In this document: piece after piece, positions 6,012-50,839 of the stretch | Layout: each line of letters opens with the position of its first letter | Numbering within the stretch: position 1 is the stretch's first letter | Source: Syntrophales bacterium | GTDB lineage: Bacteria > Desulfobacterota > Syntrophia > Syntrophales > PHBD01 | NCBI GenBank assembly: GCA_963668175.1 | Contig: OY764159.1 | Span: 3,552,001-3,616,000, forward strand | Length of the DNA: 64,000 bases | Reading direction: 5' to 3' | Notes under the pieces: generated by a model | What the model saw: the letters and a program-made list of their open reading frames with translations, nothing else | Told to the model about the DNA's origin: nothing | Databases searched by the model: none | Translations under genes and position numbers: made by a program

Positions 6012-7193
6012 ATGAGAGAAGTGGTCATTATCGGCGGTGCGAGAACCGCCATTGGAAACTATATGGGATCGTTGGCGGGGTTCAACTCCGTCGCGCTGGG
6101 CATCTTTGCGCTGAAGGGCGCGCTTGAGAAGACGGGAGTGGCCATGGGCGACCTGGAATGCCTCGTTGCTGGTCACGTGAACCAGGCGGGTGCGCCGGGG
6201 AACTCGGCCAGACACATCGCCATGCGGGCGGGCCTGCCGATTACGTCCTACGCCTACACGGTGCACCAGCAGTGCGCATCGTCCATGCGTGCGGCGGAGT
6301 GCCTGTCCCAGGACATCATGCTGGGGAAGTACGACGTGGGCGTCGTGGTGGGCATCGAGTCCATGAGCACGGCGCCGTATCTCCTGATGGGCGCCCGGAA
6401 GGGATACCGCCTCGGGGATGCGGAAAAGGTGCAGGACAGCCTCATGATCGGGGGCCTGGTCGACGATCTTCTGGGTTATCACATGGGGATCACGGCGGAG
6501 AACATCGCGGCCGATTACGGGATCACGCGTGAAGAGCAGGACGAGTTTGCCCTCATGAGCAACATGCGGGCGTGCAAGGCGATCCAGGAGGGGTGGTTCA
6601 AGGACGAGATCGTCCCGGTGGAGATCAAGACGAAGAAAGGGACGACGGTATTCGATACGGACGAGCATCCGCAGGCGAACACGTCGATGGAGGCGTTGGC
6701 GAAGCTGAAGCCCGCCTTCAAGAAGGACGGGACGGTGACGGCGGGAAACGCCTCCGGACTGAACGACGCGGGGTCGGCCCTGATCATGATGTCGGCGGAA
6801 GCGGCGAAGGCGAAGGGCTTCAAGCCTGTCGCCAGGGTCGTCGCCTCCTCCCCCGGTTCGGTGGAGCCCCGGATCATGGGCATGGGTGTGGTTCCCGCGG
6901 TGCGTAACGCCCTGAAGTTCGCGGGGCTTTCGCAGGACCAGATCGATTACTGGGAGTTGAACGAGGCGTTTGCGGCGCAGGTTTTGGGAGTGAACCGCGA
7001 GTTGAAGATCGGCCTGGACCGCGTGAACGCCGTTGGCTCGGGGATCGGCCTGGGTCATCCGGTGGGGGCGACGGGCGCGCGTCTCATCCTGACCATGATC
7101 AACGAGATGAAGCGCCGGGGCGTGAGATACGGCTGCGCCTCCCTGTGCGCAAGCGGCGGACCCGCCCATGCGTTTATCGTCGAATCTATCTAA
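6012..7193 (+). CDS. Acetyl-CoA C-acyltransferase (thiolase)
   Basis: QQCASS, NEAFA, GHPVGATG, CASGG. Confidence 0.93.
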   Translation: MREVVIIGGARTAIGNYMGSLAGFNSVALGIFALKGALEKTGVAMGDLECLVAGHVNQAGAPGNSARHIAMRAGLPITSYAYTVHQQCASSMRAAECLSQDIMLGKYDVGVVVGIESMSTAPYLLMGARKGYRLGDAEKVQDSLMIGGLVDDLLGYHMGITAENIAADYGITREEQDEFALMSNMRACKAIQEGWFKDEIVPVEIKTKKGTTVFDTDEHPQANTSMEALAKLKPAFKKDGTVTAGNASGLNDAGSALIMMSAEAAKAKGFKPVARVVASSPGSVEPRIMGMGVVPAVRNALKFAGLSQDQIDYWELNEAFAAQVLGVNRELKIGLDRVNAVGSGIGLGHPVGATGARLILTMINEMKRRGVRYGCASLCASGGPAHAFIVESI

Positions 7194-7213
7194 CCGAAAC
7201 CAGGAGGCACGAT

Positions 7214-8668
7214 ATGGCACTCAAGACGCCTGAAGAGTACGAAGCAAGTCTGCGTAAAATGAACATGAAGATATACCTGATGGGCGAGCGGGTGAAGGAC
7301 CCGGTGGACCATCCCATCATCCGGCCTTCGATGAACTCCGTGAAGAAGACCTACGAGCTGGCCCTGGACCCGTCCTGCGAGGACCTGATGACGGCGACGT
7401 CGTCGCTGACGGGGAAGAAGATCAACCGCTTCTGCCATCTCCACCAGAACACGGACGACCTGATCAGGAAGGTGAAGATGCAGCGTCTGCTGGGCCAGCA
7501 GACGGCGGCGTGCTTCCAGCGGTGCGTCGGCATGGACGCGATCAACGCCGTGGACTCGACGACCTTCGAAATGGACCAGAAGCTGGGGACGGAATACCAC
7601 AAGCGCTTCCGGAACTTTCTCCTCAGGATGCAGGAGGAGGATTGGACGGTGGACGGCGCCATGACGGACGTGAAGGGCGACCGCGGTCTGGCTCCGCACC
7701 AGCAGGCGGACCCGGACCTCTTTGTCCGGGTGGTGGAGAAGAACGACAGGGGGATCGTGGTGCGCGGGGCGAAGGCGCACCAGACGGGTGCGGTGAACTC
7801 GCACTGGGTTCTCGTGATGCCGACGATCGCCATGGGGAAGGACGATGCGGACTATGCGGTGGCGTTCGTCGCCCCGGCGGACGCGGAGGGCATCTTCTAC
7901 ATCTACGGGCGGCAGTCCTGCGATACGCGGAAGCTGGAAGGCGGGACGATCGACGTGGGCAACGCGACCTACGGGGGCCACGAGGCGCTGATCGTCTTCG
8001 AGGACGTGTTCGTTCCGTGGGAGAACGTCCTCATGTGCGGGGAGTGGCAGTACAGCGGGCTGCTGGTGGAGCGGTTCGCCGGTTATCACCGTCAGAGCTA
8101 CGGGGGCTGCAAGGTCGGCGTGGGCGACGTTTTGATCGGGGCGGCGGCGGTTGCGGCGGACTACAACGGAGCGGCGAAGGCCTCGCATGTGAAGGACAAG
8201 CTGATCGAGATGATGCACCTGAACGAGACGCTGTATTCTTGCGGGATTGCGTGTTCGTCGCAGGGGAGCAGGACGGCGTCGGGGACGTACCTGATCGACC
8301 TGTTGCTTGCGAATGTCTGCAAGCAGAACGTGACGCGCTACCCGTACGAGATTGCGCGGCTGGCCCAGGACATTGCGGGTGGCCTCATGGTGACGATGGC
8401 TTCGGAGAAGGATCTGAAGCACCCGGAGATCGGGAAGGTGCTGGAGAAGTACATGAAGGGCAATGCGAGCGTGCCGGTGGAGAACCGTTGCCGGATGATG
8501 CGCCTGGTGGAGAACCTGACGCTGGGAACGGCGGCGGTAGGCTATCTGACGGAATCGATGCACGGGGCGGGTTCGCCCCAGGCGCAGCGGATCATGATCG
8601 CCCGCCAGGGCAACCTGGAACACAAGAAGAAGCTCGCCGAGAAGATCGCCGGCGTAGCCGATAGATAA
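7214..8668 (+). CDS. abfD: 4-hydroxybutyryl-CoA dehydratase / vinylacetyl-CoA delta-isomerase (canonical)
   Basis: CFQRCVGMDA, HRQSYGGCK, GAKAHQTG, GGHEAL, TESMHGAGSPQAQR. AGGAGG RBS. Confidence 0.92.
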   Translation: MALKTPEEYEASLRKMNMKIYLMGERVKDPVDHPIIRPSMNSVKKTYELALDPSCEDLMTATSSLTGKKINRFCHLHQNTDDLIRKVKMQRLLGQQTAACFQRCVGMDAINAVDSTTFEMDQKLGTEYHKRFRNFLLRMQEEDWTVDGAMTDVKGDRGLAPHQQADPDLFVRVVEKNDRGIVVRGAKAHQTGAVNSHWVLVMPTIAMGKDDADYAVAFVAPADAEGIFYIYGRQSCDTRKLEGGTIDVGNATYGGHEALIVFEDVFVPWENVLMCGEWQYSGLLVERFAGYHRQSYGGCKVGVGDVLIGAAAVAADYNGAAKASHVKDKLIEMMHLNETLYSCGIACSSQGSRTASGTYLIDLLLANVCKQNVTRYPYEIARLAQDIAGGLMVTMASEKDLKHPEIGKVLEKYMKGNASVPVENRCRMMRLVENLTLGTAAVGYLTESMHGAGSPQAQRIMIARQGNLEHKKKLAEKIAGVADR

Positions 8669-8690
8669 AGCGTTAAAGGAGAAGTAAGTT

Positions 8691-9986
8691 ATGGAAAAGA
8701 CGAAATCTGGGGCTCTTTCCGACGTCACGGTACTCGATTTTTCGTGGGTTCTGGCGGGTCCGCACGCGACGAAAACGCTGGCCGACATGGGTGCCAACGT
8801 CATCAAGGTCGAACGCTACGAAGCCGGCGCCAATGAGCGATGGCAGAATCTCCGCGTGGAGAAGGACGGCGTCATACAGAGTTCCTATCATATCAACGTC
8901 AACCGAGGAAAAAAGAGCATCTGTATAGATCTCAAGAATCCCCGCGGTTTCAAGATCGTCCAGGAACTCATTAAGAAGAGCGATCTTTTGATTGAAAACT
9001 TCGCCCCCGGCGTCATGGAGCGGCTGAAGCTGGATTATGCATCGGTGAAGAAGATCAAGCCGGACATCATTTATTGCTCCATTTCGTGCTTCGGGCACTG
9101 GGGACCGTTCAGCAGCAAGCCCGGTTACGACATCATCGCCCAGGCGGCCAGCGGCTGGGTGGGACGGAGTACGCCGCCCATCATGGCTGCCGTCTCCATC
9201 GGCGACACCACCGCGGCCATGCATGCCTGTACGGCTATGCTGGCGGCCCTGCATCACAAGATCGTAACGGGCGAGGGTCAGAACATCGACATCTCCATGG
9301 TGGACTGCCTGTATTCCCTCCACGAACATGCGCTTCCCTGGTACTGGGCGAGCGAAACCGCCGGGGAGCCGGTCTTGATGGCTAAAACCGGTCAAACGAT
9401 CGTATCTTCCGCTCCGTACGGGATTTATAACGGCAAAAACGGTCATATCGCCGTCGCCAGCATGTCGGAAAACCGCTGGCTGCCGCTGATCGACTTAATG
9501 GGGCCGGATGCGGCCTGGATCAAGGATGACCCGAGGTTCAAGGACGTTCCGACACGCAGCCTTCCGGAAAATACCGCCATCATCCACGAGGTCGTCGATA
9601 AATGGGTTATGTCACAGGACTCGGTGGAAGAGGCCGAACGCAAGCTTGATGCCGCCGGTATCCCCTGTTCCCGTGTGAAGGAGCTGAAGGAACTGGCCAC
9701 CGACGATCCCCATATTAATGCCCGCGAGATGAGCCCCAGGGTCTTTCAGCCTTTCCTCGGCCGCATGAGGATGTTCGGCAGCCCCCTGAAATTCTCCGAG
9801 ACGCCCTCAGAGGTCAGGGGATACGCCCCGTTCCTGGGAGAGCATAACAAAGAGATCCTTTCGCTGTACCTCCGTTATTCGCCGGAGGAGATAGAGTCTC
9901 TTTATAAGGAGAAAATTCTCTATGAAGCGCCGGAAGTGAAACGCCTTCCAGGGGAATTGAAAAAGAACGCAGAGCGGAAAGGATAA
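8691..9986 (+). CDS. Family III (CaiB/BaiF) CoA-transferase
   Basis: LAGP...LADMGANVIKVE, NRGKKS, ENFAPG, catalytic Asp in SIGD, APFLGEH. Confidence 0.92.
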   Translation: MEKTKSGALSDVTVLDFSWVLAGPHATKTLADMGANVIKVERYEAGANERWQNLRVEKDGVIQSSYHINVNRGKKSICIDLKNPRGFKIVQELIKKSDLLIENFAPGVMERLKLDYASVKKIKPDIIYCSISCFGHWGPFSSKPGYDIIAQAASGWVGRSTPPIMAAVSIGDTTAAMHACTAMLAALHHKIVTGEGQNIDISMVDCLYSLHEHALPWYWASETAGEPVLMAKTGQTIVSSAPYGIYNGKNGHIAVASMSENRWLPLIDLMGPDAAWIKDDPRFKDVPTRSLPENTAIIHEVVDKWVMSQDSVEEAERKLDAAGIPCSRVKELKELATDDPHINAREMSPRVFQPFLGRMRMFGSPLKFSETPSEVRGYAPFLGEHNKEILSLYLRYSPEEIESLYKEKILYEAPEVKRLPGELKKNAERKG

Positions 9987-10303
9987 TCGATTGCGGGATC
10001 CTGAAATATTTCGAAGCGTCGCCCATTGCCTGTCCTGTCCGTCACGCCTGTTGTCAGGAATCATGCAACGGCATTGTCCGCAATGCACCCCCGAACATGA
10101 CCGGGCAGGCGCGTGGCGGACAGGACATCTGCAGTATTGACAACGGGTCATGGACGCGCTTTTTGCGGTTGTTTCGAAGCCGCGTTCGGAAAACGACTCT
10201 TGAAGACTTTATCGGCGGTTCGCATCGCGAAGATGCCCGACGCATCCGAATGAACGGAAAATCCTGTGGAAATGGTTAATCAGAAAGGGAAGGAGTACTT
10301 CAT

Positions 10304-11107
10304 ATGTTCGATCTCTCAAAATTCTCCTTGAAGGGAAAAGTCGCCATCGTAACAGGGGGCGGCCGCGGCATCGGCCAGGCCATCGCTTACGGCTTCGCCA
10401 AGGCAGGCGCAAAAGTGGCCATATCGAGCCGCAAGGTCGAGGATCTCGAAGCAACGGCCCGTGAAATAACGGCCGCAGGCGGGGAGGCATACGTCGTACC
10501 GGCACACCTGGGCAAGCATGAGGAAATCCAGAGGGTCGTTGACGCCGTCCTTTCTAAGTTTGGACGAATCGATATTCTGGTCAACAATGCCGGCGCAAGC
10601 CCCGCGATGAGCTCCGTTCTCGACTCTGATGAGCGCCTCTGGAACGCCATCATGAATCTCAATCTCAAAGCCGTCTATTTCATGAGCCAGGCCGTAAGCA
10701 GGGTGATGAAGAAACAGGGCGGCGGGAAAATCATCAATATCTCTTCCGTCGATGGCGTCAATCCGGAACCCAACCTCAGTATCTACTCCATCTCCAAGGC
10801 AGGCGTCCGTCAGATCACGCGTTCCTTCGCCATGGAACTGGCGCGCGACAACATCCAGGTCAATGCCATCCTTCCCGGTTCCATCACGACCAAGATGATG
10901 GATTCCCACTGGGGACATCTGTCGCCCGACGAGGCAAAGAAGGAAAAAAATAAAGCGGCCTCGGTGCTTGCCATGGGGCGAATCGGCGATCCTGATGAAA
11001 TTGCCGGCGCAGCTATCTACCTGGCTTCTGACGCGTCAAGCTATACAACGGCGGCGGAGCTTCTCGTCGACGGAGGATTGCTTCTGGGCGCTTATTTGTC
11101 CGAATGA
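10304..11107 (+). CDS. Short-chain dehydrogenase/reductase
   Basis: TGGGRGIG, NNAG, YSISK catalytic motif. Confidence 0.92.
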   Translation: MFDLSKFSLKGKVAIVTGGGRGIGQAIAYGFAKAGAKVAISSRKVEDLEATAREITAAGGEAYVVPAHLGKHEEIQRVVDAVLSKFGRIDILVNNAGASPAMSSVLDSDERLWNAIMNLNLKAVYFMSQAVSRVMKKQGGGKIINISSVDGVNPEPNLSIYSISKAGVRQITRSFAMELARDNIQVNAILPGSITTKMMDSHWGHLSPDEAKKEKNKAASVLAMGRIGDPDEIAGAAIYLASDASSYTTAAELLVDGGLLLGAYLSE

Positions 11108-11259
11108 AGCGACCGGAGAATGAGGCCAAAAGAGAGGGACGGCAGTCATCGTAAAGATGTCTCCATGACGCCGCGCATTGTCGCGATATATCTGACAGAT
11201 ATCGGTTGCCGCTTCTCGATGACCAATTGACCCTAACGACCCCTGTCCCAAAGAAATAC

Positions 11260-11291
11260 CCGGGGCCTGCGATCTTGCTTGCCGGCCCCGG
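11260..11291. terminator. Possible terminator hairpin between convergent SDR and GntR genes
   Basis: CCGGGGCC...GGCCCCGG 8-bp inverted repeat with a long loop. Confidence 0.35.
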
Positions 11292-11347
11292 TCATGGAAT
11301 TCAAAAAAGAGCTGCGTATCCGGATCCTTTTGCGATCTTGCGTAAGG

Positions 11348-12046
11348 CTATTGCTGGCCCATAAATCTTGTATCGTAGTCGACTACCTTATGAAGCGGCA
11401 TATTCTCCAAGCTCCGAAGAAGAACCTCTGATGCCTTTTCTACATGGCTTTCCATCAATTTTCGTATTCTATTGAAATTCTTGCTTTTGATGACCTCAAT
11501 CAACTCTTCGTGTTGCTCGACAAAGAGCGGATAATACGGCTCGAAGAGCACGACATACCGGAAGTCGAACGTACGCCAGCGAATGTTCTCCACCAGTGAT
11601 TCCAATTCCTGATTGCCCGACTTGGCCGCCAGCAACCGGTGAAAATCCAGGTTGGATTCCTGCCAAACACGCCTCGCTTGCGCCCTGTCGTTGGCACCTA
11701 TGCACCCGCGCATTTTCATGTTGATGGCCTTCAGGGTCTCCAGATCCTCCGGTGTCAAATGCGGCGCGGCCAGCTCGGCGCTCTTGGCCTCCAGGATCGC
11801 CAGCAATTCGTAGAGATTTTTCGTGTCCTGATAGGATATTTTCGTGACGGTCGCCCCTCTGCCGCGGCTGATGACGACAAAACCGTCGGCATAGAGCATT
11901 TTAAGCGCGTCTCGAACGTAACCGCGGGTGGTATGCAGCCTGTCGCACAGCTCTTTTTCGACGAGGCGTTCCCCCGGATTCAGCTTTCCCGCGAATATTT
12001 CGTCGCGTATTGTTCTGTAGATATCGTCTTTTGAAAACATGTCCAT
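11348..12046 (-). CDS. GntR-family regulator with FCD domain
   Basis: N-terminal wHTH (PGERLVEKELC...TRGYVRDAL) and FCD motifs NLDFH, EQHEELI, ESHV. Confidence 0.9.
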   Translation of the reverse strand: MDMFSKDDIYRTIRDEIFAGKLNPGERLVEKELCDRLHTTRGYVRDALKMLYADGFVVISRGRGATVTKISYQDTKNLYELLAILEAKSAELAAPHLTPEDLETLKAINMKMRGCIGANDRAQARRVWQESNLDFHRLLAAKSGNQELESLVENIRWRTFDFRYVVLFEPYYPLFVEQHEELIEVIKSKNFNRIRKLMESHVEKASEVLLRSLENMPLHKVVDYDTRFMGQQ

Positions 12047-12812: not shown

Positions 12813-13817
12813 TCAGGAGAAAAGCGCTGTCAGGATGGCCCAGAGACCGGCGGACAGCGTACCGGCAATAGGGATGGTCAGGATCCAGGCCCAGACGATG
12901 TTCCCGGCCACGCCCCAACGGACGGCCGATATCCTTTTCGTTGATCCGACCCCCATGATGGCTCCGGTAATGGTATGCGTCGTACTCACGGGAATGCCGG
13001 CAAGGGAGGCGCCGATGATCGATATGGCCGCAGCCGTCTCCGCGCAGAAACCGCCCATGGGTTGGAGCTTGGTGATCTTCGTTCCCATCGTTTTGACAAT
13101 CCGCCATCCGCCCGACATGGTGCCCAGGGCGATGACCGTATAGCAGAGAATGACAACCCAGAAGGGAATATGAAAGACCGGCCCCAGATGGCCGCTGCTG
13201 AAAAGAACAAGGGCGATGATGCCCATCGTCTTCTGCGCATCGTTCATTCCATGGCTGATGCTGTAGATGGCGGCGGAAAGCATTTGCAGTTTTTTGAAGA
13301 TGTTGTTCGACCGGGTAACGTTGCTGCGCCTGGACAGATTCAGAATGATGACCATCATCACAATGCCGAGAAACAAACCGACCATGGGCGAAATGACGAT
13401 GAACGCCGATGTCTTGATGACGCCTTTCCAGACGAGAACGTCCGCCCCGCCCTTCATCAGTCCGGCGCCGATAAGGCCGCCGATCAGGGCGTGGGACGAA
13501 CTGCTGGGAAGACCGAACCACCAGGTAATCAGATTCCAGATGATGGCCCCTCCCAGCGCGGCCACCAGCAGTATATTGTCGACGATGGCCGTATTGACGA
13601 TGCCGGTGCCCACCGTCTTGGCGACCTGGACGTCGAACAGGAAGACGGCCACAAAATTGAAAAAGGCCGCCCAGAGAACAGCCTGCCGCGGTTTCAGGAC
13701 CTGGGTCGAGACGATGGTCGCAATGGAGTTGGCGGAATCGTGAAAACCGTTGATGAAATCGAAAATCAAGGCAAGCACGATGATGAAGATGACAATGGCC
13801 AGGGTTGTGCTTATCAT
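12813..13817 (-). CDS. pit: Inorganic phosphate transporter, PiT family
   Basis: Both PiT signatures (GFHDSAN, HGMNDAQK), plus PSSSSHAL and PVSTTH. Confidence 0.93.
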   Translation of the reverse strand: MISTTLAIVIFIIVLALIFDFINGFHDSANSIATIVSTQVLKPRQAVLWAAFFNFVAVFLFDVQVAKTVGTGIVNTAIVDNILLVAALGGAIIWNLITWWFGLPSSSSHALIGGLIGAGLMKGGADVLVWKGVIKTSAFIVISPMVGLFLGIVMMVIILNLSRRSNVTRSNNIFKKLQMLSAAIYSISHGMNDAQKTMGIIALVLFSSGHLGPVFHIPFWVVILCYTVIALGTMSGGWRIVKTMGTKITKLQPMGGFCAETAAAISIIGASLAGIPVSTTHTITGAIMGVGSTKRISAVRWGVAGNIVWAWILTIPIAGTLSAGLWAILTALFS

Positions 13818-13822
13818 ATGGA

Positions 13823-14554
13823 TTATTCTTCTATTTCGGTTTTATCGGTCTCGGTGTCCGGGGGCAGGTCCCTGGTGATGGACCAGGCATTGAAGATACC
13901 GAAGAGGACACCGGCGACAACGAGGAAGAGCAAAAATGCGGAAAAACTCTTGTAGGCTTCCATTTGCGTCTTGGCCAGGGTTTCCGTGGCCTTCATCCTT
14001 TCATCGGCCTGTGCTTTCATTTTAGCGACGATGGCATCTATCTGCTCCGTAGGCTCCCGGTCTATACCCCGGACGCTCAGATCCACGCGCCGAGCGGTTA
14101 AGGGATCGGAACCGCGGTATTGCTTAAGGGCCTCGCGGTACTCCCTGCCGAGCCTTTCGTGGTTCGTGATCGCCGAAGGAAGCTCCGGGACGGAGAGTCC
14201 CGTCGTCTTCGTCATGGCCGCAAGAGTCTGCAGGGATTCGCCGACCAGCCGGTCTTCTTCATTGAAGGCCCTGAGATGCCGTTCGTAAAAGTCCTTGTCG
14301 TATCCCCGCAGGAGAATGTTCTTCCATTCCTGGACTTGCTTCTTGAAATGGACTTCCGCCAGACGGGCGGTGTCCGTGGCAAGCATCATGGCCTGTCCCT
14401 CCGTGACGCTTCGGTGCAGGCGGTTGTTTGTCTCCGAAATGGCAATGACGCCGTACAAACCGATAACGACGGTCAGAACGGTAAATATACCGACGGTGAT
14501 GACCACCCGTCGCCTGACGGGAATGTCCTGGAAGAATGTATTCGGTTCTTTCAT
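13823..14554 (-). CDS. Membrane-anchored chemoreceptor-type four-helix-bundle sensor domain without a signalling domain
   Basis: TM - helical periplasmic region (FKKQVQEWKNILLRG ... VRGIDREP) - TM - short acidic tail. Ends 5 bp before pit. Confidence 0.7.
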   Translation of the reverse strand: MKEPNTFFQDIPVRRRVVITVGIFTVLTVVIGLYGVIAISETNNRLHRSVTEGQAMMLATDTARLAEVHFKKQVQEWKNILLRGYDKDFYERHLRAFNEEDRLVGESLQTLAAMTKTTGLSVPELPSAITNHERLGREYREALKQYRGSDPLTARRVDLSVRGIDREPTEQIDAIVAKMKAQADERMKATETLAKTQMEAYKSFSAFLLFLVVAGVLFGIFNAWSITRDLPPDTETDKTEIEE

Positions 14555-14599: not shown

Positions 14600-14638
14600 T
14601 GTTGCAGAAATGTGACAGTATTGTGAAGATTCTGTTAA
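14600..14638 (-). promoter_or_regulatory. Pho-box-like array (4 repeats, 11-bp period) upstream of the sensor-pit genes
   Basis: Minus strand reads TTAACA gaatc TTCACA atact GTCACA tttct GCAACA. Confidence 0.75.
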
Positions 14639-14758: not shown

Positions 14759-14797
14759 TTCATGGAAAATTCACGATACCGTCATCAAATTGCAACC
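14759..14797 (+). promoter_or_regulatory. Pho-box-like array (4 repeats, 11-bp period) upstream of the 14840-22698 operon
   Basis: TTCATG gaaaa TTCACG atacc GTCATC aaatt GCAACC, then 9 nt and TATCAT (-10-like, 14807-14812). Nearly identical to the pstS array. Confidence 0.8.
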
Positions 14798-14839
14798 TGG
14801 CTTCGATATCATTGGGCCAAATTCGGGAAAGGAGAAGCA

Positions 14840-17299
14840 ATGAGCCGAAGCGAGGCGAATTCAGGTTTCTATCTTCGGAACATAGATCACATTCAGGAGT
14901 CGCCGCAGTCCTTGAACCGGATCGTAGGGGCGCTTCACATCCGGACAGACGGTAACAATATCGACTGCCGTACCCTCCCCTTTGCCCCGGGGGATACGAC
15001 GGCGGGAAGCGAGGCGGAATTACAGGCCGCCGTTATCGGACAAAAGACCAATGTCGATCTCCCGTTGATCATCGAACAATCCAATTATTACGCCAATATC
15101 ATCCGCCGGGCGGCGGCCGGCGACACGACCAGAAGGGTCATCACGGACCTGGAAAAGTTTCTTCACACCAATAACGAGCAGGTCTGGGAAAACAGTTGGG
15201 TCCGGTTCCCCCGTTCCGTCTTAAACGGGTTCGCTGAGGCGACTTTCAGGCACGATCTTCTTGCCGACAAGGAAAACCCGTCGCAGGGTGTCCGGACGGA
15301 TGCCGATAAATTCATGTTTACCCGGCAGGAGCGCGAACATATCCGTGTCCCCGTCAGCTATCTCCTGAAGCTCGCTCTGGCCGACGTCCTGGGCGCGGAG
15401 AAAGACCTTCCCCGTTCCATATGGCATTCAGGCCGGGAGCTTATGGACCATTTCCTCAACGACAACACGTCGCCGGAGACCTTCTCTTTTTACGTAACGC
15501 CCCTGAAGGCGGAGGCGGGACAGGGACAGCCGCTGGCAAGGGAAACGGGAAAGCGGTTTCTCCTGACGCAGCTTCTCACCCTGTACGCCAACGAGAAGTT
15601 CCATCTATACGCAACGGGGCAGAAAGCGGCCATCTTCTATTCGCCCCATCCTCCCGTACGGCAGCAGAGGCTCAACAACTGCATCTCCGATGCGTTCTAT
15701 CGCGAGCTTTTCATGAGCCCCTGTCTTTCCGGGTGGACCCGCGGCGAGGCCAAGCAGGACTACATGCATCTATGTCACCGGGTCTTGAGCCGCAGCCAAT
15801 TGAATACCTTGATCAAGCTGCGGGAGGCGGGGATCATCACAAGCAATCTCGTCGCTCTGCCGAATACTTCCAATGTCAGTCTCGCCAACAACGGGACCCA
15901 CATCAGCCTCGGCAGCCGCAAGCTCGGCGAGGCCATGAAAGACAGGACGTCGGGATTTAACAGGGCTTCCGAGAAATATGCCGGAGACCTCGTCGTGAAG
16001 ATGGTGGAACATTTCCTCCCCCTCTTCGTCGGCAGTTACAGCGCGGCCCCGTACCGTCTCGACTACCTGGATTTTCATCCCGAAAAGGTACTGGGGTTCC
16101 TCCCCCATGAACTGGATTACACCCATCTGCGCATGATCTGGCGGCGGTGGCAGAAAAAGGCGGGCATCAAGATCATGGGCCGTCCCACGACGCCTTTCGG
16201 TCCCATCTGGCTCGACCGCATGATCAAGACGGTTTTCGACCTGAAGGGCGATTACGTCCCCGATTACCGTCTGGTCGATTATCTGGTCGCCCTGATGAGC
16301 ACGGAAAAGAGTCCGGCCCTCGACGGCCGCCTGCACAACAGCGATCGCCTCAAGGCGGACCTCGCCGATCTGGGCGTTTTCGACAACAAAATGTCCCTTT
16401 ATCTCTTCGAGAAACTCCGGGAACATGAAGTCATGGGATTTTCCGGATTCGAGGCGCGCCATTACAGCATCTTCTGCCGCTTCGAAGAGGACATGGGGCG
16501 GGCAGCCGCACTGCAGAATCTACTCTATTGCCTGGCCTTCCAGTACATCGCCAAGGGACTCCTGACTCACGATCACATCCCGGACAATCCCGTCGTGGAA
16601 AGCGAACGGAGGCAGATTATCTTCGGGGCGGCTATCGGCATCCCCACGTTCTTCGTTCGCCAGGACACCCAGAATCTCTTCCTGAAGAGAATTGTTTCCG
16701 GAGCGTCCCGTAATCGCCACAGCCGACGGTATCCGGGATATACCCGCGTGCATAACGACGAATACCGGCGGGCGCTTCTTCGGATTTTGCGGGAGGATGC
16801 CGCCGAGTTGATCGAGATGTTCGGCATGCAGGAGGTGATCGACGATCTGTCCCGGCGCCTGGACGATCCCAAGCATTTTTCGGTTGCCGGGCGTCTCAGC
16901 CGTGCCGTCTGCGAAGAAGCAGGCGTCAAATCCCCTCTGCAGGCGGAGGCAGCCGAATTCAACCGGGCCGCCGAGAAGTACTATCGGGAAAAACTGCGTG
17001 CCGGCCACATCGAGGAGAGTCTGCGGTTCTTCGAAGAGGACCTGCTGAATCTGCACCGCGCGGAAGGTCTGCGCCGCGAGACGATCCGTAACGCCGTCCG
17101 TTTTATCCTCCAGGACGGAGATGACCGTCAATTCTTCTCGAAAGTAAGCAAGTCCATAAGTGCTGAGACCGTGACCGAAGAAGACTTGAGAAAACTGATC
17201 TATCTTTTGATTTTAACGATTCATGAGGAAAAATCACACTATGTATGTACAAAAGAACCAGGCAGCACAGGAACACCCCATGCTGCATCACTATGTTGA
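14840..17299 (+). CDS. Uncharacterised 819-aa protein, possibly a carboxylate-amine ligase (GS/glutamate-cysteine ligase fold)
   Basis: Long ORF with AAGGAG RBS. Motifs TAGSEAELQ, NNGTHISLG and FEARH resemble the GxExE, GxH and ExR motifs of the superfamily. Function is inferred. Confidence 0.6.
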   Translation: MSRSEANSGFYLRNIDHIQESPQSLNRIVGALHIRTDGNNIDCRTLPFAPGDTTAGSEAELQAAVIGQKTNVDLPLIIEQSNYYANIIRRAAAGDTTRRVITDLEKFLHTNNEQVWENSWVRFPRSVLNGFAEATFRHDLLADKENPSQGVRTDADKFMFTRQEREHIRVPVSYLLKLALADVLGAEKDLPRSIWHSGRELMDHFLNDNTSPETFSFYVTPLKAEAGQGQPLARETGKRFLLTQLLTLYANEKFHLYATGQKAAIFYSPHPPVRQQRLNNCISDAFYRELFMSPCLSGWTRGEAKQDYMHLCHRVLSRSQLNTLIKLREAGIITSNLVALPNTSNVSLANNGTHISLGSRKLGEAMKDRTSGFNRASEKYAGDLVVKMVEHFLPLFVGSYSAAPYRLDYLDFHPEKVLGFLPHELDYTHLRMIWRRWQKKAGIKIMGRPTTPFGPIWLDRMIKTVFDLKGDYVPDYRLVDYLVALMSTEKSPALDGRLHNSDRLKADLADLGVFDNKMSLYLFEKLREHEVMGFSGFEARHYSIFCRFEEDMGRAAALQNLLYCLAFQYIAKGLLTHDHIPDNPVVESERRQIIFGAAIGIPTFFVRQDTQNLFLKRIVSGASRNRHSRRYPGYTRVHNDEYRRALLRILREDAAELIEMFGMQEVIDDLSRRLDDPKHFSVAGRLSRAVCEEAGVKSPLQAEAAEFNRAAEKYYREKLRAGHIEESLRFFEEDLLNLHRAEGLRRETIRNAVRFILQDGDDRQFFSKVSKSISAETVTEEDLRKLIYLLILTIHEEKSHYVCTKEPGSTGTPHAASLC

Positions 17300-18296: not shown

Positions 18297-18366
18297 CGTG
18301 CATCGCGGAAACGGACGGAACAGAAATAATCCATTCACTTTGAGGGAACTTCCCGGGAGGTATCTG

Positions 18367-18807
18367 ATGAGACAGCTGGAATCGTTAATGGATGGGCGGA
18401 AAACGAAGTCCAGAGAAACGGCCATGCACAGTAAGGCCCACGCGGCGATCAGAACGGAGCTTGTCGGGAGGTTGCGCCAGTTGCGCGGCATGGCTTCCCA
18501 CACGGTCAGCGGCATGAAGAACGACAGGGAGAATCCCGCCGATATCATCGACCTCGCTTCGCGGGAGGAGTCCCGGCACATCGAGCTTGCCATCCGGGGC
18601 CGAGAGAGGGAAACCATCCAGGACATCGAGAACGCCATTGCCCGTATCGATTCGGGCGAATTCGGCATATGCGAGGAGTGTAGCGGGGCAATTACGATCG
18701 GACGGCTCCTGGCCAAACCGACAACGACATACTGCCGGACATGCCAGGAGAAGCGTGAAAGGGCTTTCCGGGGACAGGGCCAGCCTGAAATGTTCCGCGC
18801 GGCGTAA
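18367..18807 (+). CDS. DksA/TraR C4 zinc-finger protein
   Basis: DIIDLA coiled-coil tip and CEEC-x17-CRTC. GGGAGG RBS. Confidence 0.88.
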   Translation: MRQLESLMDGRKTKSRETAMHSKAHAAIRTELVGRLRQLRGMASHTVSGMKNDRENPADIIDLASREESRHIELAIRGRERETIQDIENAIARIDSGEFGICEECSGAITIGRLLAKPTTTYCRTCQEKRERAFRGQGQPEMFRAA

Positions 18808-18820
18808 TACCAGGAACATC

Positions 18821-20323
18821 ATGAACGATTCACGTCTCTGGATGAAGAAACTGGCGGACCATTACCGCAGCGTCACCCGCCGCTTTCCCGAAGCAAAACA
18901 CATGATCGTCTTCGACATCGACGGCACGATCCTCGATTCGCGATACATGATCCGCCGCACCCTTCAGTCCTTCGACCGCCATCACGGGACGGAATTCTTC
19001 AGAGACCTCTCCGTTGCCGACATCACCTTCCCCGAAACAGTCCTTGCAGACATCCTGGTATCCCTCGGGCTTCCGGGAGACCGGCAGCGGCAAATCGTCG
19101 CCTGGTATACGGAACACGGCTGGTCGGCCGAATCGGTGCTGGAAGCCCATCGTCCGTTTATCGGCGTGATGGAGGTCATCCGGTGGTTCCAGATTCAGCC
19201 CAATACCCTCGTCGGACTCAACTCCGGCCGGTCCGAGTCGGTCAGGGCGGAAACCCTTTGCTGTCTCAACAAGATCGGAAGGCGCTTCAAGGTCAACTTC
19301 ACGAACGATCTCCTCTATCTGAACCGCAACGGCTGGGACGGCGGGGTCATCGAATCCAAGCTGGAAGGCATGCTTCATTTCCAAAAGGCCGGCTACCGGC
19401 TGTTCGCCTTTGTGGACAACGAGCCGGAGAATCTCGAGGCCGTCGCCTCCATGGACAGGCGGCAGGAGATGATGCTCCTTCACGCCGACACGATCTTTCG
19501 TTCGCAAAGGATGCTCGTACCGAATCGGGCCGTCAGCGGCGACCGTTACGACGTGGCCGAGCTCTTCGCCGAGCATTCGCTGCCCGGCCACATCCAGTTC
19601 GTGTGGCACTCGATCAGCGGCAGGGATAATTTCCTGCGGTTTCTCGCATCCAACGTGCAGTGGGCCGAATTTCCCGTCCGCCTCGGCTACGACGGCAACC
19701 ATCTCGTCATCCGCAACGATTCATACGATGGCGATCTTCCGGAGTACGAAAGTGATGTCCTCTATTTGAAGAAACTTCTTCCCGAGCTTTCCGCAAAGGA
19801 AAAATCGATCAAGATCGACATGAAGGAAGAGACTTTTCCCGTCGATCAACTCATCGATCTTCTGAAACGTTGCGGCTACGACGACAGCCGTCTGTGGTTC
19901 AACGGCAAGATCGAAGCCTTGAAGGAAAAAGGGTTTCGGAAGCTGGCGGCTGCATATCCCCGGGCGATTCTCCAATGCCCCGTCGACGACCTGGTGCCCC
20001 TGATGCTCGGCAGCCCGGCGACCGCCCTGTCCGTCCTCGATACGTTCCGGTCGTGGGGCATTAACCGGGTTTCCCTGAGCTGGAAGACACCGTTCCTGGA
20101 AGCCGCTCTGGAAAAGCTGGAGCGCTGGGGCTTCGAAGTCAATATCTACAATGTGCCCGACCTGGAATCGTTTCTTTCGGCCGTCCTGATGCTTCCCCAA
20201 TCGATTACTTCGGATTTCAACTTTACGCCCTGGCTTCAGGAATCAACAAAATTCCGGGGAAGACATACCGCAAAGGAGTGCCATCTAAGCGGCATAATGA
20301 CACATCCCGGGACAGGAGGCTGA
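18821..20323 (+). CDS. HAD-family phosphatase fused to a PLC/GDPD-like (menorin-like) TIM-barrel domain
   Basis: N-terminal VFDIDGT, NSGR and FVDNEPEN HAD motifs. The C-terminal half has VWHS...WAEFPVR...SIKIDMK, resembling PLC-like phosphodiesterases (less certain). Confidence 0.65.
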   Translation: MNDSRLWMKKLADHYRSVTRRFPEAKHMIVFDIDGTILDSRYMIRRTLQSFDRHHGTEFFRDLSVADITFPETVLADILVSLGLPGDRQRQIVAWYTEHGWSAESVLEAHRPFIGVMEVIRWFQIQPNTLVGLNSGRSESVRAETLCCLNKIGRRFKVNFTNDLLYLNRNGWDGGVIESKLEGMLHFQKAGYRLFAFVDNEPENLEAVASMDRRQEMMLLHADTIFRSQRMLVPNRAVSGDRYDVAELFAEHSLPGHIQFVWHSISGRDNFLRFLASNVQWAEFPVRLGYDGNHLVIRNDSYDGDLPEYESDVLYLKKLLPELSAKEKSIKIDMKEETFPVDQLIDLLKRCGYDDSRLWFNGKIEALKEKGFRKLAAAYPRAILQCPVDDLVPLMLGSPATALSVLDTFRSWGINRVSLSWKTPFLEAALEKLERWGFEVNIYNVPDLESFLSAVLMLPQSITSDFNFTPWLQESTKFRGRHTAKECHLSGIMTHPGTGG

Positions 20324-21624
20324 TGATCAAGACCTTTATCCTCGACACCAACGTACTTCTCCACAACCCCGACGCCCTTTTCGCCTTTGAAGAAAACCGG
20401 GTGATCGTCCCTTTTGTCGTCGTTGAGGAGATCGATTCGCAGAAAATGAGGCAGGACGAGATCGGGAGGAACGCCAGGCTCGTTTCCCGGAATCTCGACG
20501 GCATGAGGGCCCATGGGCATCTTGCCGAAGGCGTGCGGCTTCCCTCCGGGGGAGTCGTTCAGATCGAACTGAACCATCAGAACCTGGACGCATTCCCTGT
20601 GGTTCTGGACAGGGGTAAGTACGACAACCGCATTCTCGCCGTCGCCTGCCATTTCCATAAGGAAAACCCGGGCAGAACGCTCCTGGTAACGAAAGATCTT
20701 AATCTAAGAGTGAAGGCCGATGTCCTCGGCATTCCCGCAGAGGATCTCTTCAAAGACACCGTCGATTACCCGCAGCTCTACGAGGGCGTCGGTCACCTGA
20801 ACGGAACGGCGGAAGACATGAATGCCCTCTATCGGGAAGGAGAACTGGCGCTGAGCGGCAGCGAATGCGCATGCCCCCATCAGTTCTTCGTTCTGAAGGA
20901 CCCGGACAGTCCTTCCCAATCGGCCCTGTGCCGCCACCTGGACGGCACTCTGTACCCTCTGAACTATGCCGATGCGGTCAACTACGGAGTCAAAGCCAGG
21001 AACAAGGAACAGAAATTCGCCCTGGAACTCCTGATGAACGACGATATCCGGGTCGTCACCCTGGTGGGCAGGGCCGGAACGGGAAAGACCCTGCTGGCGC
21101 TGGCGGCAGGCCTGACGAAGGTGGTCGAGCACAAGGTCTATCGGAGGCTCCTTGTCACCCGTCCGGTAGTCCCCATCGGCAACGATTTGGGCTATCTCCC
21201 CGGTTCCAAAGAAGACAAGCTCCGGCCCTGGATGCAGCCGATCTTCGATAATCTGGAATTTCTCCACGCCGACATTAAGCACCGCCGGCAGACGATCGAG
21301 CAGCTCATCGAAAACGGCACGCTGGAAATGGAGGCCCTGACCTATATCCGGGGAAGAAGCATTCCCAAACAGTTCATTGTCTGCGACGAAGCGCAGAATC
21401 TCACACCGGTGATGATTAAGACGCTCGTTACACGCGTCGGGGAAAAATCCAAGATCGTCTTCACCGGCGACCCGGAACAGATCGATAATCCTTATCTGAA
21501 CGCGGGCAGCAACGGTCTGACGTATCTCGTGGAAAAGATGAAAGGCGAGGCGCTGGCCGGCCATATCATCCTGAATAAGGGTGAGCGCTCCGCCGTTGCC
21601 GAACTCGGGGCGAAAATACTTTGA
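20323..21624 (+). CDS. PIN-PhoH family ATPase (YlaK/PhoH2-like)
   Basis: LDTNVLL PIN motif, GRAGTGKT, YIRGRS, DEAQN, GDPEQID. TGATG overlap with the upstream gene. Confidence 0.93.
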   Translation: MIKTFILDTNVLLHNPDALFAFEENRVIVPFVVVEEIDSQKMRQDEIGRNARLVSRNLDGMRAHGHLAEGVRLPSGGVVQIELNHQNLDAFPVVLDRGKYDNRILAVACHFHKENPGRTLLVTKDLNLRVKADVLGIPAEDLFKDTVDYPQLYEGVGHLNGTAEDMNALYREGELALSGSECACPHQFFVLKDPDSPSQSALCRHLDGTLYPLNYADAVNYGVKARNKEQKFALELLMNDDIRVVTLVGRAGTGKTLLALAAGLTKVVEHKVYRRLLVTRPVVPIGNDLGYLPGSKEDKLRPWMQPIFDNLEFLHADIKHRRQTIEQLIENGTLEMEALTYIRGRSIPKQFIVCDEAQNLTPVMIKTLVTRVGEKSKIVFTGDPEQIDNPYLNAGSNGLTYLVEKMKGEALAGHIILNKGERSAVAELGAKIL

Positions 21625-22817: not shown

Positions 22818-23786
22818 ATGATCCTATCGCTTATCATAACCCGCAGATATGTGCGGACGGCGGCGGCCGTTCTGGCCGTTTTTGTCGTTTCCGTCTTTGC
22901 AGCTCCGGACATTCCATCCTCCTTTTCCTCCCGCCTGCCGTATGCGGCCTTGCTGGCGAAAGAAAAGAATCCCGCTCACCGCTGGTTTAAAAAAAAGAGA
23001 TTGACGAAGCTCCGGGGCGTCGTTCTCGTCGTACACGGCCTGAACCTGAGGCCGGAGCGCATGAAGGCCGTCATCCGCGTCCTGAACGAGGCCGGAATGG
23101 ACGTTCTTAACCTGTCCCTTCACGGTCACGGGGAAAATTATCTGCCCATGGCCGGATTGTCGGATAAAGAGGCCCGCCTGGAATCTTTCCGGCGTGTCAG
23201 TTACACCCTGTGGGCCGGAGAGCTTCGCGACGCCTATCGCAAGGCGCGGGAACGGGCCGATGAGAAAGGCGTTCCCGTCTATTTTGCGGGTTTCTCGCTC
23301 GGGGGGCTCCTGGGGTGTGATTTGCTGGCATCGGATCGCGACGTGTCGTTCCGGCGCATGATCCTCTTTGCCCCGGCTCTCAACGTCATGATCGAGGCGC
23401 ACTTGCTGAAGACCTTGACCCCCTTCCCCAATCTGGTCATCGACAGCCTGTCGCCGCCCTCTTACCGGACCAACGACGGGACGCCCATGGCCGCCTATCG
23501 GGCCCTGTTCGAGGCCATCGCCCATCTTAAAGAGCAGAGTACCGACAGGCTCGATATTCCCACCCTGGTCTTCATCGACGAAAACGACGAATTGATCGAC
23601 GGCCGAAACTTGACGGAGATCGCCTGGAAAGGCCTCACGCGGTGGCGGATCGTGATGCTTCACAGAGACAAAGACGATCCCGGCCCGCAGACACTCTCTC
23701 ACCACCTGATCATCGACGAGGCCGGCACGGGAAGGGAGGCGTGGAAACGAGTCGAGGCGGAGATAAGGCGGCATGTCCGCGAATAA
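22818..23786 (+). CDS. Exported or membrane-anchored alpha/beta hydrolase (carboxylesterase/lysophospholipase-like)
   Basis: VHGL oxyanion motif, GFSLGG nucleophile elbow, DELID and SHHL acid/base candidates, hydrophobic N-terminus. Confidence 0.8.
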   Translation: MILSLIITRRYVRTAAAVLAVFVVSVFAAPDIPSSFSSRLPYAALLAKEKNPAHRWFKKKRLTKLRGVVLVVHGLNLRPERMKAVIRVLNEAGMDVLNLSLHGHGENYLPMAGLSDKEARLESFRRVSYTLWAGELRDAYRKARERADEKGVPVYFAGFSLGGLLGCDLLASDRDVSFRRMILFAPALNVMIEAHLLKTLTPFPNLVIDSLSPPSYRTNDGTPMAAYRALFEAIAHLKEQSTDRLDIPTLVFIDENDELIDGRNLTEIAWKGLTRWRIVMLHRDKDDPGPQTLSHHLIIDEAGTGREAWKRVEAEIRRHVRE

Positions 23787-46099: not shown

Positions 46100-47128
46100 T
46101 CATGGGCCCGACGAGGGGGCTCGCTCATCGATCTTGACTTCGGGCGGCTTGGGCCTGTTTTTTCTCTGATTCACCAGGTTCTGCCTGTACTGAACGTAGG
46201 CATCGCGGACCGCTACATAGGGGTCGATGGCGGCCTGTTTGAGAGATTCATAGTCTCCCAGCGTGAGGGAGACATCGTTCAGCTTCTGATAGCTCCTGAC
46301 GGGCAGCCAGAAATACCACGGTTCAAGATATGAAACGGGATAGAGGAAATACTCCCCTACAAAACCCACCGAATCGCGCGGACTGGAGGGCCCGAGCACC
46401 GGCCACATGATGAAGAACCCATGTCCGATCCCGTAAACGCCCAAGGTCTGCCCGAAATCGACATCCTGCTTTTTGAGATTGATTTCCGGCAAGGAGGCGG
46501 GATCGAAAAAGCCTCCGATCCCCATCGTTGTATTGACAACGAACCGCCCTAATTCCGTCCCCGTGCATTTAAGGTCCGCCTGCAGGAGGCAGTTGGCAAA
46601 GCGGATCGGAAAGTAGAGGTTGGAAAAGAAATTCTGGATGCTGACCCTGAAGCCTTCGGGAGCAATTATATTGTACCCTTGGGCCACGGGCTTCATCACC
46701 CAAAAGTAGAGTCTATCATTGAAAGTGAACATGGCCCGGTTGAAGGATTCGATGGGATCGGAAACCGGTGCAGCCAATGCATTCTCATCCTGCACGTCTT
46801 TCTTCGCCGGGACGTCCTGGGCGGCTGGGCCGACGTCGTCTTCCTCTTTATAATCGCTTAAGTCCTGTTTTTCCTCCCGGCCAGACTTCTGGGCGGTCGA
46901 GGAAGCTTCTTTTACACCGACGGCTTCGCCCTTGGGGTTCACCGCCGTGCCGGACGGGTCTGGCGTAAGCGTTTCCTGCTTTGCAATAACCGGCGCCGGC
47001 TGGGCAGGGGACGGCTGCGGAAGAGGCGTACGGTTAGGGTCATGGGCGCATCCCGTGGCGAGAATAAACGGCAGAAGCATCATTCCGAGTAAACGTTTCA
47101 CCAAGGGGATGTCCATATCAGTCTTCAC
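46100..47128 (-). CDS. mlaA: VacJ/MlaA lipoprotein
   Basis: Lipobox LATGC, DPIESFNRAMF, RFVVNTT, DFGQTLG, GPSSPRD, DPYVAVRDAY. Confidence 0.93.
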   Translation of the reverse strand: MKTDMDIPLVKRLLGMMLLPFILATGCAHDPNRTPLPQPSPAQPAPVIAKQETLTPDPSGTAVNPKGEAVGVKEASSTAQKSGREEKQDLSDYKEEDDVGPAAQDVPAKKDVQDENALAAPVSDPIESFNRAMFTFNDRLYFWVMKPVAQGYNIIAPEGFRVSIQNFFSNLYFPIRFANCLLQADLKCTGTELGRFVVNTTMGIGGFFDPASLPEINLKKQDVDFGQTLGVYGIGHGFFIMWPVLGPSSPRDSVGFVGEYFLYPVSYLEPWYFWLPVRSYQKLNDVSLTLGDYESLKQAAIDPYVAVRDAYVQYRQNLVNQRKNRPKPPEVKIDERAPSSGP

Positions 47129-47149
47129 TTCCGTGAAACATCGTCCACG

Positions 47150-47749
47150 TCAATCCTTTTGCGATTTAACTTTATCGCGTAGGATCTGAAGCAGTTGATC
47201 GGGTGAATTTTTTGCCAGGATGTCGTTGAACTGGGTTCGGTAGTTCATGACCAGGCTGATGTTCTCAACGACCACGTCGTACACCTTCCAGGTGCCGTTT
47301 GCAAGAATCATCCGATAGTAAATAGGGACCTCCTTCGAAGCGGTGACAATCTTGGTCTGGACCTCGACCTGGTTGCCGGAGAGAGGCAACTCTTTCGTGA
47401 ATACGACTTTCTCGTTGCTGTACGAGAGGATTCTGTCGGCATAAGCCTTTTCCAGGATCTGGTGGAAGAGATGAACGAATTCCTTCCTCTGGGATTCGTT
47501 AAGCCTGTTCCAGTTCTTCGCCAGAGTCCGCTTGGCGAGTTCGACTTCATCGAACATGGCATTGTATATGACCGTCAGTTTCTGTATTTTCTGTTCCTTC
47601 GCCGAAGCCGCCTTGAGCTTCGGATCGCGGAGCACTTCAAATACTTTATTGACGTTGACCTGAACGGTATCCAGCGGCACGCCGCCATATACCGGCAACG
47701 ACGCTAAAAAGACGACGATAACGATCAATCCTGCAACCCGCGTTTTCAT
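47150..47749 (-). CDS. mlaC: MlaC/Ttg2D periplasmic phospholipid-binding protein
   Basis: WKVYDVVVENISLVMNYRTQF and a signal peptide. Confidence 0.92.
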   Translation of the reverse strand: MKTRVAGLIVIVVFLASLPVYGGVPLDTVQVNVNKVFEVLRDPKLKAASAKEQKIQKLTVIYNAMFDEVELAKRTLAKNWNRLNESQRKEFVHLFHQILEKAYADRILSYSNEKVVFTKELPLSGNQVEVQTKIVTASKEVPIYYRMILANGTWKVYDVVVENISLVMNYRTQFNDILAKNSPDQLLQILRDKVKSQKD

Positions 47750-47777
47750 GAATGACCCCCTTTTTGCAATTCCTTGA

Positions 47778-48239: not shown

Positions 48240-48243
48240 TTGC

Positions 48244-50360: not shown

Positions 50361-50839
50361 CGACCATCATATCCTTTTCGTAAGCAGATTCCTTCTCGTT
50401 CATCTCTCTTTCTGCTGATCAGCAGCCCATTAGCCTGTTAATATATATCCAATTTTATATTTATTTCAAGTAGGCAAAGCGTCTTTATCACATTTCGCGC
50501 CGCGTCAATGAAAAAAGATGTCATTTTTCGTTAAGTCACTGAGAAAAATGAAAAAACAGACATGGAAATCAACAAAAGAAGGTTGTCCGGCGTATACGTA
50601 CCTCCTCGTTCAGGGAATAATCGCCGACACACAGCGGAAGGCGATCCCTACCAAGCCGCCATGAAGCCATACCCGCCTGCCGCTCCCCGGTAGCTTGAGC
50701 CGGTCCATTTCTCCTGCGAGTATATCCTTGAGTGCGGCACTTTTTTAAAGGGAATCCGGCCCACCCGGGCAGGGATGGGAATCCCGACCTGGAAGGACCG
50801 GACGAAAGAAAGGGATTATTGGCGTGAATATTGATGATT

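Follow-up and report, generated by a model that had tools for sequence, protein, structure and literature searches.

The window analysed here is a stretch of 64,000 nucleotides from the genome of a Syntrophales bacterium (assembly GCA_963668175.1, contig OY764159.1). Encoded on its forward strand is P0001, an 819-residue protein that belongs to a widespread, unnamed family with no annotated relative. Upstream of the gene is an array of Pho-box-like repeats, and downstream of it, on the same strand, are paralogs of two lipid enzymes, a PSD-family pyruvoyl decarboxylase (P0271) and a membrane protein related to Lgt (P0272; Table 1). The surroundings of P0001 are more informative than the protein itself, and the Pho-box-like element and the two partners, none of which figured in the sequence-only reading of this gene, point to its likely biological role, which we tentatively propose to be the synthesis of a sulfur-containing aminolipid during phosphate starvation.

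An alternative, longer frame of 851 residues opens at TTG 14744; as this frame would cross the upstream repeat array, ATG 14840 is the likelier start. The strand opposite the open reading frame (ORF) is full of stops. Lacking any 19-residue segment of transmembrane-strength hydropathy (the highest mean is 1.34, and none reaches 1.6; grand average of hydropathy −0.4), P0001 is probably a soluble protein.

P0001 has no match in Pfam or NCBIfam at E values up to 1, and none among PDB sequences at E values up to 10, with either the single sequence or a family profile as query. Its relatives in the ESM Atlas are exclusively unnamed clusters of the same length, and the Atlas lists no structure for it. 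At least 2955 clusters match at E ≤ 0.001 (7999 candidates scored), and among the matches listed, the best 120 of the 2955, all are unnamed or hypothetical and none has a Pfam domain. The family has 753 representatives at 50% identity, with 272 at E ≤ 1e-30, and a relative of P0001 is encoded in 536 of 600 candidate stretches from species genomes. Members occur in Syntrophales, Smithella, Geobacteraceae, Desulfuromonadales, Desulfonema, Acidobacteriota/Blastocatellia, NC10, Nitrospirota, Nitrospinota and anammox bacteria; among the carriers named in the matches and loci listed are Syntrophus buswellii, Citrifermentans bremense, Trichlorobacter lovleyi and Desulfonema spp. Of 201 genomes sampled from the window's phylum, 20 have the family, and of 201 from the order to which the Desulfonema limicola genome belongs, 54 have it. 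The suggestion of the sequence-only reading that this is a new and unusually large family is borne out by these searches.

Three motifs, TAGSEAELQ, ANNGTHISLG and GFEARHYS, had been picked out in the sequence-only reading, and they lie along P0001 in the order it gave. In a family alignment of 40 sequences (A1; identity to P0001 from 80% down to 31%) are 39 invariant columns, among them those so marked in Table 1 together with K305, Y308, M309, C312, H313 and G533. The Glu, His and Arg residues of the three motifs, on which that reading relied, are kept in homologs: they are invariant or, for G56, E58 and E60, conserved at 90% or more in A1, and the pattern G.E.E[LFYM] occurs in 99.5% of 364 full-length family members. 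The DNTSPE motif and SERR are each found in 364 of these 364 members, which were chosen by requiring N.G.H.S and E.R.[YFHW]S, so that the near-100% rates of the latter two patterns follow from the selection. Judged from the alignments, motif conservation in the family exceeds chance.

At the C terminus of 147 of the 364 full-length members (~40%), after a variable linker, is a conserved tail of the AAPVYRAG or AASLC type (in P0001, nucleotides ~17270-17296). We considered whether the Lgt-like enzyme lipidates the C-terminal Cys of P0001 ('AASLC') and rejected the idea, as most members end in the AAPVYRAG type, without Cys.

The array preceding P0001, TTCATGGAAAATTCACGATACCGTCAT, shares its intergenic region with a second triple repeat that faces a divergent operon. 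Searching both strands with the pattern ([GT]T[CTA]A[CT] N6) x3 yields 3 sites in the 64-kb window and 10 in the 4.57-Mb genome. Four of the 10 precede phosphate genes, namely pstC-pstA-pstB-phoU, two PstS-like genes and the PHO4 operon, and the triple in front of one PstS-like gene of the window (site 51713-51739; gene 50840-51700, reverse strand) is near-identical to that of P0001. Among the other genomic triples are one each before a PilZ protein, a chemoreceptor, and a small ORF followed by a hybrid kinase, and two that are AT-rich and have no downstream gene.

The upstream regions of homologous genes were drawn from a neighbourhood sample of 80 loci with up to 6 kb of flank each, from Syntrophales, Geobacteraceae, Acidobacteriota, NC10, Nitrospirota, Nitrospinota and anammox bacteria; 62 of these provided 200 nt, which with the window gave 63 regions, and the other 18 lacked 200 nt or the expected ATG. 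Self-similarity scored without any motif peaks at a lag of 11, where 30 of the 63 regions have at least 6/7 identity, against 10-16 at lags 7-16; self-similar triples number 11 at this lag and 0-4 at others. Pairs of the pentamer at lag 11 occur on the forward strand of 32/63 regions; other lags give 5-8, the reverse strand gives 5, and of 1240 control windows taken at random from these loci 41 (3%) have such a pair. Pentamer triples occur in 9/63, as against 0 at other lags and 7/1240 control windows. The upstream repeats are of the types CTTCAC, GTCAY and TTAACA, which we take to resemble PhoB/PhoP boxes. Tandem 11-bp repeats are thus a feature that P0001 has upstream in common with the pst and pho genes of its genome, and they would place the gene behind a putative, Pho-box-like promoter element of phosphate starvation.

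Two further observations concern such sites. Following the PstS-like gene of the window on the reverse strand (46100-51739) is a full Mla lipid-transport set, composed of MlaE, an ABC ATPase-GGDEF fusion, MlaD, MlaC and MlaA, and its position behind a Pho-box-like site hints that outer-membrane lipid trafficking may be co-regulated with phosphate starvation. Elsewhere, a divergent intergenic region (G000:C1:1848531-1848739, locus L107) contains two Pho-box-like triples, of which one faces a PstS-like gene and a CHASE4-PAS-GAF histidine kinase and the other a PilZ protein and then a sigma-54 activator.

Directly downstream of the P0001-type gene, on the same strand, is a PSD-like gene in 73/80 loci by tblastn and in 77/80 by clustering, usually overlapping the stop codon of its neighbour (median offset −10 nt). 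That of the window, which probably starts at ATG 17241 or 17280, likewise overlaps the end of the 819-residue gene. P0271 is one of three PF02666 genes in this genome and scores 133 bits against the NCBIfam equivalog, for which the cut-off is 371, yet it retains the PAD and YH.NH motifs and the Gly-Ser self-cleavage site. An Lgt-like gene lies downstream in 67/80 loci (tblastn) or 66/80 (clustering). In the window it begins with TTG, 18 nt after the PhoH stop codon and with AAGGAGG 6 nt upstream. Scoring 24.6 bits against 242.6 for the canonical Lgt encoded elsewhere in this genome, P0272 keeps the Arg of GRLACISFGCCYG and that of WRxxSExLRADYRG, motifs that align to GRIGNFINGELYG and RFFIEFFREPD of the canonical enzyme. 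The retained residues of both partners are ones to which we assign catalytic roles on general grounds. A crude hydropathy topology of P0272 proved unreliable, the canonical Lgt itself giving only 4 segments by the same means. Both partner genes are extra paralogs, with canonical copies elsewhere in the genome. The three genes form a conserved trio, and all other gene clusters present in more than 30 of the 80 loci are shadow frames opposite its members.

Table 1. Features of the P0001 locus, in coordinates of the window
Feature	Position	Strand	Remarks
Divergent operon	12813..14554	-	Membrane-type ORF and PHO4 transporter
PHO4-family phosphate transporter	12813-13817	-	In divergent operon
Membrane-type ORF of divergent operon	13823-14554 (or up to 14719)	-	Predicted
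Second Pho-box-like triple repeat	14612..14638	-	Same intergenic region as the array below; faces divergent operon
Pho-box-like array TTCATGGAAAATTCACGATACCGTCAT	14759..14785	+	Three [GT]T[CTA]A[CT] at 11-bp spacing; 54 nt before ATG
Shine-Dalgarno AGGAG	14830..14834	+	5 nt before ATG 14840; read from sequence
P0001 gene	14840..17299	+	819-residue protein of unnamed family; uninterrupted translation
Motif TAGSEAELQ	14999..15025	+	Residues 54-62; G56, E58, E60 conserved at ≥90% in A1
Motif DNTSPE	15461..15478	+	Residues 208-213; D208, N209, P212, E213 invariant in A1
Motif ANNGTHISLG	15884..15913	+	Residues 349-358; with S359, G352 and H354 invariant in A1
Motif EHFLPLFVGSYSAAPYR	16007..16057	+	Residues 390-406; E390, L395, P404 invariant in A1
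Motif GFEARHYS	16445..16468	+	Residues 536-543; G536, E538, R540, S543 invariant in A1
Motif ESERRQ	16598..16615	+	Residues 587-592; R590, R591 invariant in A1
PSD-family (pyruvoyl decarboxylase) paralog P0271	17223..18296	+	PF02666 at 134 bits
DksA-family zinc-finger protein	18298..18807	+	Inside operon; Pfam and NCBIfam
ORF of ~497 residues	18830..20323	+	Weak resemblance to HAD acid phosphatase (class B); PF03767 23.9 bits, cut-off 27
PIN-PhoH protein	20278..21624	+	PF02562 and PF13638
Lgt-like membrane protein P0272	21643..22698	+	PF01790 ~24.5 bits, cut-off 24.9
Alpha/beta hydrolase (Hydrolase_4)	22818..23786	+	Homologs near trio in 7/80 loci

The order of genes in the window is 819-residue gene, PSD-like gene, dksA, ~497-residue ORF, PIN-PhoH gene and Lgt-like gene. 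A DksA/TraR-type gene is found near the trio in 22/80 loci, of the Syntrophales type, usually between the PSD-like and Lgt-like genes, and homologs of the ~497-residue HAD-like ORF adjoin the trio in 4/80; it is speculation that the product of this ORF could dephosphorylate the glycerol phosphate freed by an Lgt-type reaction. Within 6 kb of the trio is a gene for an OmpR-type regulator, a histidine kinase or a Pst-type transporter in 34/80 loci, and one for a Zn-phospholipase C or an 802-residue GT4 glycosyltransferase in 16/80, at least one of all these being present in 48/80. The 802-residue protein, with its GT4 domain at the C terminus, is encoded at L063:1953-4361 (reverse strand) and at 11 other loci, and the Zn-dependent phospholipase C at L071:11234-12172 (forward strand) and at 10 other loci, in both cases mostly in Geobacteraceae; these neighbours fit a combined island of glycolipid and aminolipid remodelling. 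Rfam and tRNA scans of 12-24.6 kb and 8-26 kb of the window gave no matches, and a promoter and terminator scan gave nothing informative close to the P0001 gene. A look-up of sequencing runs listed no RNA run that contains the stretch. Beyond the divergent operon, at 7145-12046, are genes for an HpaB-type 4-hydroxyphenylacetate hydroxylase family protein, a family III CoA-transferase, an SDR protein and a GntR/FCD regulator, which look unrelated.

What P0001 itself may do is suggested by its motifs. In E. coli GshA, as translated from the gene, the segments RGLERETL, SGVHYNFS, IPYLFGASPA and IEYIEVRSLD follow one another, and in these segments, we assume, sit the metal and substrate ligands E27, E29, H150, E328 and R330. 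Counterparts found by eye in P0001 come in the same order, as AGSEAELQ, NGTHISLGS, LPLFVGSYSAAP and FSGFEARHYS, and the EHFLPLFVGSYSAAPYR motif resembles GshA IPYLFGASPA, again by eye. From the His to the E-x-R motif there are 184 residues in P0001 and 178 in GshA, on the numbering that we assume for the latter. At the level of motifs, then, a conserved G-x-E-x-E strand motif is followed by G-x-H and by E-x-R, which is the order of the superfamily of glutamine synthetase and glutamate-cysteine ligase (GS/GCL; PafA/Dop included), whose first strand, near the N terminus, binds metal, and altogether five conserved segments of the P0001 family are co-linear, by eye, with hallmark segments of GshA and GCS2.

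For comparison with GCS2, alignments of 17 and 37 sequences were built from genome loci. A low-stringency hhalign path against the 17-locus alignment sets three motif segments on GCS2 hallmarks, pairing NNGTHISLG with glHVhvG, EHFLPLFVGSYSAAP with lPyllAlsanSP, and GFEARHYS with lEvRicD; the EHFLPLFVGSYSAAPYR motif gives a local match to GCS2 positions 151-167 (P = 0.04). When GshA is added to the family alignment by MAFFT --add, its E27 and E29 are placed on E58 and E60. GCS2 and GshA-type ligases are both absent from this genome, and PF04262, the GshA family, is found in 0/201 genomes of the window's phylum.

The proposed pathway begins with P0001 as the soluble first enzyme of a Pho-regulated membrane-lipid operon. 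As an ATP-dependent ligase of the GS/GCL type, it would join cysteine by an amide bond to the gamma-carboxyl of glutamate. The Lgt paralog would transfer a diacylglyceryl group from a phospholipid to the cysteine thiol, yielding a thioether and glycerol phosphate, and since the Lgt-type step releases glycerol phosphate, phosphorus would be recovered. The PSD paralog would take the alpha-carboxyl off the glutamyl moiety, and it is plausible that this decarboxylation comes last, since lipid head groups are what PSD enzymes act on. The result would be a lipid free of phosphorus and containing nitrogen and sulfur, S-diacylglyceryl-(4-aminobutyryl)cysteine. That a Pho-induced carboxylate-amine ligase, an Lgt-like enzyme and a PSD-like enzyme together make a gamma-aminobutyryl-cysteine thioether lipid is a proposal to which we give nearly, although not quite, an even chance.

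A lipid of this kind may already have been seen. Desulfatibacillum alkenivorans at phosphate limitation is reported to replace almost all of its phospholipids by glucuronosyl lipids and by new sulfur-containing aminolipids made only at low phosphate, the BACys lipids ('N-butyramide cysteine glycerol'), whose head group gives an ion C7H13O3N2S+ at m/z 205.064 (Ding et al. 2024, PMC11181052). The parts of that report available to us name no biosynthetic genes for BACys lipids, and among the publications listed in a literature search none was found to name any. By our calculation, gamma-Glu-Cys minus CO2 is C7H14N2O3S, and the cation derived from its thiolate, C7H13N2O3S+, has m/z 205.0641. The predicted head group, decarboxylated gamma-Glu-Cys minus H, therefore matches the composition reported for the ion (205.0641 versus 205.064). 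The three enzyme types supply exactly the bonds needed, that is, the amide, the thioether to glycerol and the lost alpha-carboxyl, and on this basis a BACys-type product is proposed. The Lgt-type enzyme would in this case lipidate a small-molecule cysteine in place of a protein, converting phospholipid to a thioether aminolipid with phosphate set free. Counted in favour of the proposal is also that the genome has no ligase of the GCS2 or GshA type that could otherwise make gamma-Glu-Cys. From all this we infer the ligase chemistry and its substrates, in what order the steps follow, and that the product is identical with BACys lipids. The fuller claim, that P0001 with the PSD and Lgt paralogs constitutes the BACys pathway, that the head group is 4-aminobutyryl-cysteine and that the pathway is widespread among anaerobes of at least five phyla, we hold tentatively and put somewhat below an even chance.

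Several results weigh against this proposal, and the largest group of them concerns the ligase. Comparison of the P0001 family with GCS2 by hhalign was non-significant overall (P = 0.11-0.24, probability <1%) and marginal for local segments (P = 0.022 and 0.041), and comparison with E. coli GshA gave a probability of 0.3%. Sub-profiles A2 and A3, made from the two best motif regions, returned chance hits only when searched against the PDB, to an aldolase, Elp3 and IcmJ at E values of 0.17-1.5, and a Pfam scan of all 40 members of A1, at E values up to 10, found no ligase family. In an unconstrained MAFFT alignment, H150, E328 and R330 of GshA do not fall on the residues of the G-x-H and E-x-R motifs, and GshA is identical at 5 of 42 invariant positions, as against 0-6 for six shuffles and 4 for the reversed sequence. 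No significant match, by sequence or by profile, was thus obtained to a solved member of the GS/GCL superfamily or to any of its family models. Of the sequence-only claim of an ATP-dependent, GS/GCL-like ligase, the conserved and co-linear motifs stand, whereas every sequence test against GCS2 and GshA was non-significant; because of the latter, it is from motifs that we infer a ligase. If the motif likeness is coincidental, P0001 would be an enzyme or scaffold of new fold, serving the PSD-like and Lgt-like enzymes at phosphate starvation. Such a protein would agree with the lack of any significant profile, hidden Markov model or alignment result against GCS2, GshA, PDB and Pfam, and with a length some 300 residues above that of GshA, but would leave to chance five invariant segments in the order of the GshA and GCS2 hallmarks and the similar His-to-E-x-R spacing (184 versus 178), and we regard it as unlikely. 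Alternatively, P0001 might be a ligase of the GS/GCL type within a Pho-regulated lipid operon and yet use other substrates, such as another acid or amine or a lipid-bound amino acid, or make a head group other than that of BACys. The motifs, the trio and the Pho-box-like repeats serve this explanation as well as the proposed one, the data do not fix the substrates, and the family occurs in phyla for which the literature consulted contains no report of BACys; yet the three enzymes account exactly for the amide, the thioether and the lost CO2, the formula matches the reported ion, and no other known lipid considered needs all three, so that this variant seems to us rather doubtful.

The link to BACys and the operon itself also have points against them. 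The BACys structure was assigned tentatively, from second-stage mass (MS2) spectra, and in the published version (PMC11181052) a butyramide is linked to cysteine, whereas from the operon we would expect 4-aminobutyryl-cysteine, an isomer. Desulfatibacillum is not among the best 120 matches listed in each of three homolog searches. In this window the trio is stretched, with three genes between the Lgt-like gene and the other two. Across the genome, the triple is no more frequent at lag 11 (10 sites) than at other lags (8-17), for which reason the Pho argument rests on where the sites are located, and the pentamer was defined after the sequences had been viewed, so that the lag controls guard only partly. 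Were the operon Pho-regulated and yet not devoted to a membrane lipid, its role might be, for example, to recover phosphate from the head groups of phospholipids or to produce a soluble metabolite; the PSD-like enzyme would then have a soluble amino acid as its substrate, as some enzymes of the PSD family do. The possible HAD phosphatase and the PhoH, PHO4 and Pst genes nearby would suit such a role, but a polytopic membrane protein of the Lgt family, with both Arg motifs, is kept in 66-67 of the 80 loci, and lipid-type neighbours (Zn-phospholipase C or GT4) are present in 16/80, which makes this explanation improbable.

Should the proposed pathway be correct, a lipid class described in 2024 would have its first genes, and the Lgt reaction would be seen in a role new to it, in which a small-molecule thiol is the acceptor and phospholipid is turned directly into aminolipid with recovery of phosphate. 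A large ligase family would be added to the GS/GCL superfamily. The published BACys head-group structure might call for revision. As the carriers (Syntrophales, Geobacteraceae, Desulfobacterales, Acidobacteriota, NC10 and anammox bacteria) are abundant in anoxic sediments, peat and bioreactors, the operon would also offer a genetic marker of phosphorus stress in these settings. Read minimally, the analysis fills an annotation gap of thousands of clusters with an unnamed, putatively Pho-regulated family tied to two lipid-enzyme paralogs.

What we propose is an undescribed pathway built from known kinds of enzyme, and each component can be set beside its known relative. With GshA (PF04262), P0001 has in common the order of segments G-x-E-x-E, G-x-H-x-x-x-S, P-x-L/F-x-G-x-S/A-P and E-x-R; it differs in having 819 residues to the 518 of GshA, with ~175 extra residues between motifs 1 and 2 and a helical-looking C-terminal extension, in having no detectable sequence homology, in invariant motifs of its own (DNTSPE, PCLSGW, MHLCH and ESERRQ), and in being Pho-linked and tied to lipid-enzyme paralogs. 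The GCS2 or YbdK ligases (PF04107) are alike in the three hallmark segments aligned by the low-stringency path, and unlike in their length of ~370 residues, their absence from this genome and a non-significant overall match. The partner proteins resemble Lgt and PSD in their Pfam family matches and in the motifs kept, Arg in the Lgt-like protein and PAD, His and Gly-Ser in the PSD-like one, whereas both fall far below curated equivalog cut-offs, and the signature of P0272, GRLACISFGCCYG, stands in place of GRIGNFINGELYG of the canonical Lgt.

Pho-regulated replacement of membrane lipids is known from PlcP with Agt glycolipids, from the ornithine lipids of OlsBA/OlsF and from the betaine lipids of BtaAB. 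With these systems the proposed operon would have in common control by phosphate starvation and the exchange of phospholipids for lipids free of phosphorus. It is composed, in contrast, of a ligase-like protein with a PSD paralog and an Lgt paralog, and the linkage proposed for its product differs from theirs in being a cysteine thioether, formed by direct transfer of diacylglyceryl and not by way of free diacylglycerol.

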